64,000 nt of DNA from NCBI GenBank assembly GCA_947629765.1, contig CANREW010000001.1:103301-167300 (forward strand). The letters run 5' to 3'. The notes below the pieces were generated by a model. The model made no database searches. It saw only the letters and a list, made by a program, of their open reading frames with translations, and was not told where the DNA came from. This document shows, piece after piece, positions 26,581 to 27,175 of this stretch. The position numbers and the translations under genes are program-made. Source of the stretch: an uncultured Clostridia bacterium (lineage in GTDB: Bacteria > Bacillota > Clostridia > TANB77 > CAG-508). Positions within the stretch are counted from its first letter, which is position 1, and every line of letters begins with the position of its first letter.

Positions 26581-26622
26581 AAAAATATAAAGAATCAGGC
26601 AATGAATTTCTTCACTGCCTGA
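26581..26622 (-). terminator. Intrinsic terminator of the large ncRNA
   Basis: The minus strand reads tcaggcagtgaa-gaaa-ttcattgcctga, followed by ttctttatattttt. Confidence 0.75.
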
Positions 26623-27140
26623 CCTTCGATAAAGTAAGAAGCATAGTCTAAATATGAGTTAACAACGGCCATAAATCACACTAGAGAAAGGCCTGAACTC
26701 TTCTTACGCAATTAAAGAAGTTTACCCCTTTCGGACATCCTTTCCGTCTCCCACATTGCACGAAGAGTTTTGAATATAGAGAGTAATATTAGACTTGCTT
26801 TCTTACCTCCCACGACGCACGTGGGCTGCGACTACATCGTGGATGCATTAAGAAACTCATCCACTGAGGGCGAAAACGGCAGGCATTTTTTTGTGGAATT
26901 ACCACCGAAATCAGCTCAAATATCCGAGCAAAGAGGATTTCCATCCATTCAATGCGGATTTCGATATACTGCATTTTCATAAGCCTTAGCCGCTCTAACC
27001 CACATAAAGTGGTGAACATTTCGTTCCCCCTTTCTTAAAAAATAGGTGTGTGCAGGAGGTCCGGTAGTACGGCTCCCTAATTACGGCCAGTGTAAAAACG
27101 AAGCCGTAAAACCTATTGCTCTGGGCAATACCCGGAGGTA
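26585..27140 (-). ncRNA. Large (~555 nt) structured non-coding RNA, class unresolved (OLE-like candidate)
   Basis: A consensus promoter lies on the minus strand (TTGACA 27175-27170, 17-nt spacer, TATAAT 27152-27147). An intrinsic terminator lies at 26622-26581. GC is visibly higher than the flanks, there are many local hairpins, and only short unconvincing ORFs. Confidence 0.6.
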
Positions 27141-27146
27141 ATAATT

Positions 27147-27175
27147 ATTATATATCATTTAACATAAAATGTCAA
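27147..27175 (-). promoter_or_regulatory. Sigma-A type promoter of the large ncRNA
   Basis: The minus strand reads ttgaca-ttttatgttaaatgata-tataat. Confidence 0.7.

Follow-up and report, generated by a model that had tools for sequence, protein, structure and literature searches.

The locus and its neighboring genes

The window, the whole 64,000-nt stretch of DNA that was analyzed, belongs to a clade of gut Clostridia represented by rabbit-gut MAGs, and carries between housekeeping genes a cassette with its own promoter, a GC-rich body and a terminator. Loci from related genomes are referred to below by their L numbers. The features of the region are as follows.

25928..26492, minus strand: cmpB (PF06541, putative ABC-transporter type IV), here a pseudogene with a +1 insertion
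26581..26624, minus strand: intrinsic terminator; its 14-bp stem, capped by a GAAA loop, spans 26624-26593 and precedes the U-rich CUUUAUAUUUUU
26581..27141, minus strand: predicted transcript of about 555-561 nt, from promoter and terminator geometry
26590..27192, minus strand: variable cassette of 603 nt (promoter, RNA and terminator stem), from the alignment of filled and empty alleles
27147..27175, minus strand: sigma-70-type promoter, TTGACA-17-TATAAT
27197..28486, plus strand: divergent neighbor, a U32-family gene of 409 aa with its start at 27257, including a promoter-like TTGAAT-17-TATAAT at 27197-27225

The gene order of the neighborhood is typA, a trmR-like O-methyltransferase gene, cmpB, U32, a GNAT acetyltransferase gene, a sigma factor gene and prfB. 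No TnpB, IscB, transposase or reverse transcriptase gene adjoins the cassette, the nearest tRNA or tmRNA lies more than 10 kb from the RNA, and no partner gene co-occurring with the RNA was found. The left boundary of the cassette abuts the −35 box of the promoter-like site of U32.

The cmpB reading frame is split in the window into ORFs of 126 aa and 84 aa, both of which match the Pfam family (E = 2.6e-30 and 2.4e-11); the intact orthologue in L063 is 187 aa. A same-strand gene for a multi-TM protein of about 187 aa had been placed downstream of the RNA by the first-pass annotation; a membrane-protein gene does lie there on that strand, however it is not intact in the window because of the extra T at 26157. 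The insertion is located in non-repetitive sequence and is common to the window, L058, L059 and L060, and it is absent from L063, L001, L065, L066 and L067; the RNA is intact where cmpB is frameshifted. As cmpB adjoins U32 in about 25 related species that do not have the RNA, the adjacency of cmpB and the RNA is considered incidental.

Transcription signals, composition and predicted fold

The promoter matches the consensus at 12 of 12 positions, and perfect TTGACA-17-TATAAT sites number two in 64 kb against 0.08 expected from shuffled sequence. The transcript is predicted to begin about 5-8 nt past the −10 box (27139-27142) and to end within the U-rich run after the terminator; the terminator is kept in every full-length variant. 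GC content is 0.385-0.46 over 26600-27100 compared with 0.17-0.30 in the flanks and 0.287 (28.7%) for the full window; the RNA segment itself is 45% GC and ORF-poor, and is the sole GC island of the window without a long ORF, tRNAs aside. The other GC islands were checked as possible paralogues: one is a secreted-protein gene, one holds tRNAs, and another is part of a glycine-rich minus-strand coding region which, from a reading of the sequence, we provisionally take to be Obg-like. Two independent pattern scans found one copy of the RNA per genome in three genomes, and no further copy is present in the window or in 205 loci (1.49 Mb).

The minimum free energy (MFE) of the whole RNA is −183.6 kcal/mol (z = −4.9 relative to dinucleotide shuffles, with 0 of 100 shuffles folding equally well). 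The first-pass annotation had described a perfect promoter and a strong terminator bracketing a segment GC-richer than its surroundings, and the 12/12 promoter, the 14-bp terminator stem and the step in composition all bear this out. The local hairpins that it listed (cccacg/cgtggg, gtggatg/catccac, tacggc/gccgta, tattgc/gcaata and cttctt/aagaag) are all readable, nearly all of them in MFE-paired regions, and its statement that only short ORFs without protein features are present agrees with the longest frames found (76 aa on the minus and 70 aa on the plus strand), neither of which has a Pfam match.

Domain architecture of the RNA

The predicted RNA is divided into a conserved core flanked by two variable arms, with the following elements, all on the minus strand.

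27035..27141, minus strand: 5′ domain (RNA nt 1-107), a GGG/CCC hairpin and then a long irregular arm closed by AUAGG/CCUAU
26789..27034, minus strand: conserved core (RNA nt 108-353) of 246 nt, with hairpins H1, H2, H9 and H10 and a multi-branch domain that a long-range helix closes
26999..27034, minus strand: invariant block A of 36 nt, GAAAGGGGGAACGAAATGTTCACCACTTTATGTGGG, forming two adjoining hairpins, GGGGGAAC/GUUCaCC and CCAC/GUGG
26922..26963, minus strand: tandem duplication of a 21-nt unit within the core, from direct repeat D1 and the alignments
26799..26848, minus strand: invariant block B of 50 nt, ATGCATCCACGATGTAGTCGCAGCCCACGTGCGTCGTGGGAGGTAAGAAA, running from the 3′ strand of H9 through a junction and H10 into the first part of the closing helix of the 3′ domain
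26789..27019, minus strand: 76-codon ORF overlapping the core, judged non-coding
26625..26788, minus strand: 3′ domain (RNA nt 354-517), variable and indel-rich; its closing helix (26789-26806 / 26634-26651) is inverted repeat I7

The 5′ domain is hypervariable in sequence and occurs in three types, represented by the window, L001 and L003. Between the window and L001 there are 32 mismatches at 104 aligned positions and 10 gap positions, compared to a neutral divergence of 18.8%; L003 differs from the window at 28 of 89 positions, with a further 30 gap positions. The fold layout is common to the three types (z = −2.9, −1.8 and −2.3, respectively), and alignment of the first hairpin reveals a C-G to U-A change at its base. 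The 3′ domain differs between the window and L001 by 32 mismatches at 135 positions and 39 gap positions, and one compensatory change is found in L001, from G-C to A-U (pair 352/516). Both arms diverge at or above the neutral rate in this comparison.

The core shows 27 mismatches at 246 positions (11%) and no indels between the window and L001, and its MFE fold is the same in both (z = −3.5 and −3.3). Block A is the same in the window, L059, L063 and L001 and carries one change in L003; a Shine-Dalgarno-like GGGGG and an AUG sit within the first of its two hairpins. Block B is the longest substitution-free run between the window and L001, which are the two most divergent full-length variants, and has a single change near its 3′ end in L063. 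The type found in L059 and L002 is without one of the two 21-nt units, namely the one bearing the GGAU-GGAA-AUCC hairpin.

Substitution patterns and rates

Substitutions in the RNA avoid the disruption of predicted helices. In permutation tests on the window MFE structure, the L001 sequence breaks 29 pairs over its full length where 43.6 are expected (P = 0.0002) and 7 within the core where 12.5 are expected (P = 0.006); the corresponding counts are 3 against 8.9 for L059 (P = 0.0014) and 3 against 7.6 for L063 (P = 0.008). Evolution that preserves base pairs is a general criterion of structured ncRNAs, and it is observed here. The sequence material is limited to four distinct variants of full length (the window, L059, L063 and L001) and the partial copies L003 and L084, and double-compensatory changes are few. 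Covariation analysis had been proposed in the first-pass annotation: pairing is kept (P = 0.0002-0.008), the compensatory pairs are few and the four or five variants are too few for R-scape.

Among the three lineages of the window, L059 and L063, mismatches in the RNA amount to 18/495 and 17/511, compared with 16/115 and 12/118 at four-fold sites of U32 (Fisher p = 1e-4 and 0.005); the divergence of the RNA is 3-4 times below that of the four-fold sites, which could be due to recent recombination instead of purifying selection. In the more distant comparison with L001, the core differs at 27 of 246 positions against 21 of 112 at neutral sites (p = 0.06), and the RNA as a whole diverges at approximately the neutral rate. 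GC content stays at 45% in the intact copies; the relic in L066 is AT-eroded and deleted.

The 76-codon open reading frame

The ORF that overlaps the core shows no codon periodicity in its substitutions. Its substitutions fall on the three codon phases at 9:8:10, which is uniform (p = 0.89), compared to 16:6:90 for U32 (p = 1e-5), and the amino-acid replacements that would follow are often radical (Y>S, L>H, C>F, R>C and S>D). A homologue is absent from a word-indexed database of 5.8 billion proteins, and from 1.84 billion representatives searched with phmmer; the ORF has no Pfam match, and it was left uncalled by the gene caller of the collection in the filled loci L058, L059, L061, L063 and L064. 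Significant protein homology had been set beforehand as a result that would speak against an RNA, and neither Pfam nor the two protein searches returned any. The frame of L063 ends two codons earlier; the 21-nt deletion appears to be 'in frame' because it removes one unit of a tandem repeat, an explanation that does not need coding. From the phase counts, the lack of a homologue or Pfam match, and the absence of a gene call, a small-protein gene was rejected.

Comparison with known RNA families

A search against Rfam, one of the checks named in the first-pass annotation, returned no family for the RNA, with OLE, ROOL, GOLLD and raiA included. With Rfam 15 there was no family at gathering thresholds for the RNA in a cmscan of the whole window, no match at E≤10 for 26400-27350 on both strands, no match at E≤1 for the L001 and L003 types, and nothing for the RNA at gathering thresholds in 14 syntenic loci. 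The first-pass annotation had seen no signatures of RNase P, T-box or group II introns, in agreement with the lack of Rfam matches on either strand. Its broader suggestion of a large structured ncRNA, of another class or novel, fits a segment that is non-coding, preserves its pairing and belongs to no Rfam family.

The same annotation had considered an OLE-like RNA (RF01071); this identification fails, as the OLE covariance model is silent at E≤10 and the neighboring gene encodes PF06541 rather than OapA. OLE and OapA are almost mutually inclusive, and OapA is a CNNM-like protein with a DxxxD motif (PMC11332333). The adjacent membrane-protein gene, searched at this locus only, contains no CNNM family at E≤0.01, PF06541 being its only match. 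The RNA does resemble OLE in length (about 555 nt compared with about 600 nt), in being structured, in its anaerobic Bacillota host, in having a small multi-pass membrane protein encoded next to it, and in being an independent transcription unit; the size and host description of OLE (about 600 nt, anaerobic or extremophilic Bacillota) applies to it, but is not OLE-specific. OLE is widespread and well conserved, whereas the present RNA is polymorphic and found in few sister species.

ROOL (RF03087) and GOLLD (RF01998) are likewise large ornate RNAs of gut or rumen Bacillota. ROOL is reportedly abundant yet non-essential and is not known to have a partner protein, GOLLD combines a conserved part with a less conserved one, and both are encoded in phages or prophages, often by tRNA islands (PMC12286853). 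The dispensability of the present RNA and its conserved core with variable arms parallel these properties; however, the ROOL and GOLLD covariance models do not match it, and its cassette is located among housekeeping genes and has no match in phage records or IMG/VR.

Several other classes were considered and rejected. Neither the class A nor the class B model of RNase P RNA (RF00010/RF00011), with the P4 helix and conserved regions CR-I to CR-V, has a match in the region on either strand; genuine class A RNase P genes do occupy the same slot in L012 and L025 (281-304 bits), on the opposite strand and with another gene order, and the three MAGs bearing the RNA, Lapin-012__bin29, Lapin-023__bin86 and Lapin-015__bin10, are not among the matches listed (at least 120) in the scan for RNase P RNA. 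A group I or group II intron or a ribozyme is rejected on the lack of a covariance-model match on both strands, and the cassette interrupts no gene; a riboswitch, T-box or other leader is rejected as no Rfam leader family matches and the RNA is kept where cmpB is frameshifted.

GC-rich intergenic islands in AT-rich genomes have reportedly been used to find structured ncRNAs, in the 'GC-IGR' strategy of the Breaker laboratory. The present RNA has the attributes of such candidates, namely a long intergenic region, 45% GC in a 28.7% GC background and a stable predicted fold; it differs in that candidates from these screens usually have many homologues and covariation, and here there are four or five variants.

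Distribution and the filled, empty and relic alleles

Homologues of the RNA were found with nhmmer, and are confined to rabbit-gut sister species with a U32 protein of 96% identity or more. Among GTDB representative genomes block A is present only in the three known MAGs, and it has zero matches in JGI metagenomes; five matches in IMG/VR were all an unrelated terminator hairpin beside a tRNA. The 16 extra matches in GTDB to a 19-mer of block B are attributed to chance, as they are codons for VGCDYI in unrelated proteins of high-GC genomes with dissimilar flanks. A gapped two-anchor descriptor gave zero matches in metagenomes and IMG/VR, as did distant-mode blastn against phage and plasmid records; tblastx, blastn with a word size of 7 and profile nhmmer over the 205 loci and the window recovered the copies already known and the relic in L066, and nothing further. 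No donor sequence for the cassette was found in the GTDB, metagenome, IMG/VR, phage and plasmid searches. Descent from a gene that fills the slot in long-spacer relatives was also considered, and rejected on the lack of tblastx similarity.

The cassette was delimited by the alignment of filled alleles (the window, L058, L059, L061, L063, L064, L001 and L002) with empty ones (L060 and L062), in which it is swapped for an unrelated 23-nt filler; it begins after AAAATTCAATAGC and ends before TATATTTTTTT. At this position relatives have a cmpB-U32 spacer of 170-270 nt. The empty alleles L060 and L062 accompany an identical U32, and the empty L085 a 99%-identical U32; L067 is an allele without the RNA, and L066 is a decayed relic in which the terminator is reduced to its 3′ half. 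As filled, empty and decayed alleles co-exist among close relatives, the RNA is dispensable. The weaker promoter of cmpB in relatives, AAACTATTTAC...GATATTAT, and its counterpart in L067 are homologous to the perfect promoter in position and sequence; the RNA body sits between this ancestral cmpB promoter and the cmpB leader.

Neither terminal inverted repeats nor a target-site duplication mark the ends of the cassette, with only a weak 13/17 AT-rich direct match near them, and there is no transposase in its neighborhood; a transposable element (IS, MITE or inverton) was rejected on the lack of terminal repeats, the single locus per genome and the lack of a nearby transposase. The cmpB-U32 slot has received other lineage-specific DNA that is GC-richer than its surroundings, in the form of the small insertions, invertons and MITE-like elements of sister species (L036, L013 and L014). 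Inverted repeats of 24-30 nt characterize these elements, and the L013 core has the opposite orientation to that of L014. The RNA cassette, unlike them, lacks terminal repeats, carries a terminator of its own, is five times longer and shares no sequence similarity with them.

Interpretation

On the evidence of sequence comparison the cassette is, with moderate confidence, an accessory gene for a structured ncRNA of about 555 nt that is independently transcribed, lineage-specific, single-copy and outside the described families. The RNA would be made abundantly from the optimized promoter and would act in trans through its core, of which blocks A and B above all may constitute the functional surface. 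By analogy with proposals for other ornate RNAs, the core may be a platform that binds a protein or another RNA, or a self-assembling scaffold; the arms could be replaceable modules of structure or specificity. A side-effect in cis is also conceivable, as the terminator of the RNA would insulate cmpB from its former promoter. A more far-reaching proposal, which is put forward only tentatively, is that of a newborn family of large RNAs: an RNA-only accessory gene of about 555 nt may have arisen in, or arrived in, a single genus-level lineage of gut Clostridia, captured and optimized the resident promoter and come to segregate for presence and absence, with a trans function of the core (sequestering a protein or RNA, or self-assembly) and arm types that tune specificity.

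The cassette may instead be a neutral passenger, that is, foreign GC-richer DNA that landed between the cmpB promoter and cmpB, is transcribed by virtue of its position, has no function and is decaying by deletion and AT bias. The confinement to species whose U32 is 96% identical or more, the empty alleles beside an identical (L060, L062) or 99%-identical (L085) U32, the relic in L066, the overall near-neutral divergence from L001 with many indels in the arms, and the other insertions taken up by the same spacer in L036, L013 and L014 are all as this reading would have it; we nevertheless regard it as unlikely, given that substitutions avoid breaking helices (P = 0.0002-0.008), three-lineage divergence is 3-4 times under that of four-fold sites, blocks of 36 and 50 nt are unaltered between the most divergent full-length variants, the promoter, unlike the ancestral one of cmpB, has reached a perfect consensus, GC is kept high in a 28.7% GC genome, and no donor appeared in any search run. 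Function in cis would take the form of a giant leader of cmpB, whose terminator serves as a conditional attenuator through riboswitch-like or protein-dependent antitermination. The RNA body exactly occupies the interval from the ancestral cmpB promoter to the cmpB leader, and no promoter of at least 9/12 follows the terminator ahead of the cmpB start codon, so that alleles with intact cmpB (L063, L001) would need read-through or a weak promoter for its expression. This explanation is judged improbable: the RNA and its structure-preserving substitutions persist where cmpB has the +1 insertion, no riboswitch, T-box or leader family matches, sequence inspection finds no conserved antiterminator (the best candidate is the 6-bp UGCCUG/CAGGCA), the approximately 520 nt before the terminator are several-fold longer than known leaders, and relatives regulate cmpB without the RNA.

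Translation of the 76-codon ORF (27019-26789) after AAAGGGGG-N6-AUG, with the flanks as structured UTRs of a small-protein mRNA or dual-function RNA, is very improbable, even though the Shine-Dalgarno-like sequence is strong, ideally spaced and invariant in five variants, the frame is open in 4/4 full-length variants, the conserved core coincides with the span from that sequence to the stop codon, and the deletions in L001 and L063 start right past the stop. Against these points stand the lack of codon periodicity, homologues, a Pfam match and a gene call, the radical replacements, the burial of the Shine-Dalgarno-like sequence and AUG in a conserved hairpin, the origin of the 21-nt indel as a tandem-repeat unit and the early stop of L063. 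Scarcely credible, finally, is a very divergent member of OLE, ROOL, GOLLD, raiA, RNase P, group II introns or IS-derived guide RNAs. A length of about 555 nt and an anaerobic gut Bacillota host do recall OLE and ROOL, and RNase P RNA occurs at the same intergenic position in L012 and L025; however, those RNase P genes lie on the opposite strand within another gene order, no Rfam 15 model matches at E≤10 (window RNA) or E≤1 (L001 and L003 types), and there is no OapA, phage or tRNA-island context, transposase, reverse transcriptase, TnpB or IscB nearby.

Apart from those of the ribosome, RNase P, tmRNA and SRP, large structured RNAs are rare in bacteria. Most of OLE, ROOL, GOLLD and raiA are, to our knowledge, without a biochemical function, and all are old and widespread, and so they tell little about the origin of such RNAs. 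The accessory ncRNA gene favored here is limited by its uncultured host and tiny distribution, and the RNA may prove to be a neutral passenger; if functional, it would be a very young large RNA whose insertion point, ancestral promoter, empty alleles and relic can still be seen in close relatives. Naturally occurring carrier and non-carrier strains could be compared, which would make the gain, fixation and loss of a large structured RNA testable.

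Transcription signals and composition

The RNA gene is a predicted autonomous transcription unit on the minus strand between cmpB and a U32-family gene. A promoter matching TTGACA-17-TATAAT at 12 of 12 positions lies at 27175-27147 (minus strand), and the terminator at 26624-26593 is a 14-bp stem with a GAAA loop followed by a U-rich run; both signals bear out the first-pass annotation, as does the GC content it had described as raised (0.385-0.46 inside, 0.17-0.30 in the flanks, 0.287 across the window). The listed local hairpins are there and only short ORFs occur, again as described, the longest ORFs being 76 aa (minus) and 70 aa (plus), neither with a Pfam match; tRNAs aside, the segment is the sole GC island in the window lacking a long ORF. 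Perfect TTGACA-17-TATAAT sites number two in the 64-kb window versus 0.08 expected from shuffles; the second is at 23443-23471 (+), about 50 nt upstream of typA, and there is no third. The 561-nt transcript has a minimum free energy (MFE) of -183.6 kcal/mol (z = -4.9 versus dinucleotide shuffles).

Features of the window discussed with the RNA gene
23519-25349, typA, split (371 + 253 aa)
25309-25921, TrmR-like O-methyltransferase, split (72 + 108 aa)
25928-26492, minus strand, cmpB, split (126 + 84 aa)
28965-29667, sigma-E/K-like sigma factor, split (140 + 100 aa)
37582-37935, 38897-39064, 41360-41432, tmRNA (166 bits) and three tRNAs, by Rfam

Comparison with known RNA families

A scan of the 64 kb against Rfam 15 (4227 models, both strands) matched the tmRNA and three tRNAs and nothing else. 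With permissive filters, the RNA region alone matched no Rfam family to E = 10, a single 10-bit match in AT-rich spacer being judged meaningless, and the two most divergent RNA variants had no Rfam match at E<=1. The cmscan proposed at the outset (OLE, ROOL, GOLLD, raiA) assigned the RNA to no family; membership of these, of HEARO, and of RNase P, T-box, riboswitch or intron classes was rejected by the respective models. The initial suggestion of an OLE-like RNA does not survive: the OLE model has no match, and the neighbouring protein matches PF06541 'ABC_trans_CmpB' only. That the RNA is a divergent member of a known family is scarcely credible. Large structured bacterial ncRNAs are a known general kind, occurring as GC-rich islands in AT-rich genomes, and the RNA is a candidate new family within it.

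RNase P RNA is absent from the window according to Rfam; two related loci carry a class A RNase P RNA (L012:3421-3775 and L025:3553-3899; 281 and 304 bits) immediately before U32 and oriented like it. Its intergenic position is that of the window's RNA, but on the opposite strand and with a different upstream gene order.

Conserved core and structure

The RNA combines a conserved core, predicted to fold stably, with replaceable arms. Four-fold degenerate sites of U32, the neutral benchmark, differ from the window by 13.9% in L059, 10.2% in L063, 18.8% in L001 and 30% in L003, each carrying a different RNA variant; in the RNA, the divergence of the window from L059 and L063 is only 3.6% and 3.3% (Fisher p = 1e-4, 0.005). 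Judged from the aligned sequences, divergence from L001 varies by module. In the 246-nt core (27034-26789) it amounts to 11% of positions with 0 indels, and stretches of 36 nt and 50 nt are unchanged; it is 31% with 10 gap positions in the 5' arm and 24% with 39 in the 3' arm. A third 5'-arm type occurs in L003; all three types share a hairpin-plus-long-arm layout (z -1.8 to -2.9), and the core folds alike in the window and L001 (z = -3.5 and -3.3).

The most direct test compared substitutions with the window's own MFE structure, which is independent of the other variants; under the null, each observed type of substitution was assigned to a random position having the same starting base, and broken pairs were counted. 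Far fewer were broken than expected in L001 at full length (29 versus 43.6, P = 0.0002) and in its core (7 versus 12.5, P = 0.006), in L059 (3 versus 8.9, P = 0.0014) and in L063 (3 versus 7.6, P = 0.008). RNAalifold recovered the long-range helices, along with a small number of true compensatory changes, including pair 155/276 (G-U, A-U or G-C by variant) and pair 352/516 (G-C to A-U), from four or five variants, a number below that needed for a formal covariation test.

Coding potential

The 76-codon ORF, preceded by AAAGGGGG-N6-AUG, occupies the conserved middle of the RNA, and a coding function therefore had to be tested. Substitutions between the window and L001 are spread evenly over the codon phases of the ORF (9:8:10; uniform, p = 0.89), versus 16:6:90 in U32 of the same genome pair (contingency p = 1e-5); three phases cover six reading frames, therefore no frame displays coding-type evolution. 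Many amino-acid replacements are radical, and in L063 the stop codon falls two codons early. The peptide has no relative in a word-indexed database of 5.8 billion proteins, nor by phmmer among 1.84 billion representatives, and the ORF is left uncalled by the collection's gene caller in five loci that carry the RNA (L058, L059, L061, L063, L064). The 21 nt missing from the L059 type, seemingly in frame, correspond exactly to one repeat unit of a 21-nt tandem duplication, and the Shine-Dalgarno-like sequence and AUG lie inside a conserved hairpin (GGGGGAAC/GUUCaCC). Given the flat phases, radical changes, missing homologues, uncalled ORF and buried start, the protein reading was rejected; an mRNA for a small protein is very improbable, and the RNA is non-coding.

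Distribution and alleles

With the flanking U32 gene as a handle, 49 syntenic loci were fetched, all from uncultured Clostridia living in the gut of rabbit, sheep, goat, mouse and human. The order typA, O-methyltransferase, cmpB (minus), U32 (plus) is kept in about 25 of the 49, with a cmpB-U32 spacer of 170-270 nt in those relatives; the RNA is confined to the three closest genomes (U32 identity 95-96% by tblastn, 96-97% by BLASTP), where the spacer is about 750 nt; relatives one step further out, whose U32 is about 90% identical, lack it. Exact protein look-up added further contigs: L058 matches the window exactly, the L002 type is found in L059, L061 and L084 and the L001 type in L065, and L063 and L064 share a new variant. 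Beyond the known copies, no RNA-like sequence was found in 185,579 GTDB species representatives, nor any in phage or plasmid records, IMG/VR or JGI metagenomes. The gene is accessory and single-copy, with one copy per genome.

Among contigs that code for one and the same U32 protein (P0008), two states occur: filled in L059 and L061, whose spacer is about 750 nt (751 nt by alignment), and empty in L060 and L062, where it is 184 nt; L085, its U32 99% identical to that of the window, is also empty. Alignment of the two states delimits a 603-nt cassette (27192-26590) comprising promoter, RNA and terminator stem, which an unrelated 23-nt filler replaces in empty alleles; the cassette has neither terminal inverted repeats nor a target-site duplication. 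In the L067 allele (cmpB 95% identical) the promoter homologue is kept and the RNA body is absent, in agreement with more distant relatives, in which that promoter-like sequence (AAACTATTTAC...GATATTAT) directly precedes cmpB; the L066 allele (cmpB 83% identical) is a relic, rich in AT and reduced by extensive deletion, in which RNA nt 160-187 and the terminator's 3' half survive. The filled, empty, L067 and L066 alleles together lead to the conclusion that the ancestor of a small clade acquired the RNA body, placed between the promoter and the leader of cmpB, and that loss or erosion followed on several occasions. The insertion lies in the cmpB leader, and its promoter is predicted to be stronger than the ancestral one.

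The empty alleles (L060:1941-2124, L062:1106-1289 and L085:1-106) share this filler (AGATTTTCTGCATAAATAAGCGC), which holds a small GCAGA/UCUGC hairpin and spans two lineages with U32 about 3% apart; the empty allele is therefore either old or exchanged through recombination. Contigs of several assemblies stop inside or beside the cassette (L003:1-160, L084:1-366, L085:1-106), as expected if filled and empty alleles mix in one sample and break the assembly graph.

Frameshifted cmpB and proposed function

The first-pass annotation placed a multi-TM gene of about 187 aa downstream; this fits the intact cmpB orthologue (187 aa), but the window's copy is broken into 126-aa and 84-aa ORFs by a +1 insertion (T at 26157). 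The RNA is intact where cmpB carries this genuine frameshift, located in non-repetitive sequence, which argues that it is maintained for more than a role as cmpB leader; a conditional attenuator of cmpB is rather improbable.

The main rival is a neutral passenger, a fragment on its way to loss, with which the presence/absence polymorphism, the L066 relic and a divergence from L001 close to neutral would all agree; but substitutions preserve structure, the core holds invariant blocks, GC content is retained and the promoter is optimised, and a passenger is considered unlikely. A real structured ncRNA under selection is probable. The RNA may be highly expressed and act in trans, with the core as its functional surface, above all invariant blocks A (27034-26999) and B (26848-26799); as suggested by other large bacterial RNAs that lack an assigned function, the core could be a protein- or RNA-binding platform or a self-assembling scaffold, and as a side-effect the terminator would insulate cmpB from its former promoter. 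Taken whole, a structured accessory ncRNA acting in trans via its core is favoured slightly beyond even chances, and any particular trans mechanism is far less secure than the selected RNA itself. ROOL is reported to be abundant and non-essential, without a known protein partner, and GOLLD to have a conserved and a variable half (PMC12286853).

The RNA would be a legitimate lead to a specialist and not a startling one, its distribution being tiny, its host uncultured and the RNA possibly neutral. Its unusual point is youth: the insertion site, co-opted promoter, empty alleles and decayed copy are all still visible, and could make the way in which a large structured RNA is born and lost accessible to experiment.

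Split genes and other insertions

Independent Illumina assemblies (L058-L064) show the methyltransferase, sigma-factor and cmpB splits again, and a truncated typA product is called in them too; because they recur, the splits look real and not like sequencing errors, which suggests gene decay or programmed frameshifting in the window's lineage. Matches of U32 by tblastn break with a frame change at a shared residue in several different MAGs, near residue 211 in L046-L049 and near residue 384 in L017, L019 and L031, pointing to recurrent frameshifts at fixed positions in related species. A GC island of 600 nt (up to 48% GC) at 1857-2348 (+) is not an RNA; it codes for a 163-aa protein whose N-terminal segment resembles a signal peptide (MKKTIAIVLVLVMTFVAMAATT...) and which may be a horizontally acquired secreted protein.

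The cmpB-U32 spacer of two sister species (L013:3783-3920, L014:3738-3950) holds a core of about 88 nt between inverted repeats of about 24 nt, in opposite orientations; the element looks like an inverton, or a MITE inserted both ways round. At L036:3746-3884, perfect 30-nt inverted repeats (TTTGGAAGTGAAATATATTTTTTGTGTCAT and its complement) surround a 79-nt GC-rich core, which is another small insertion at this spacer hotspot.
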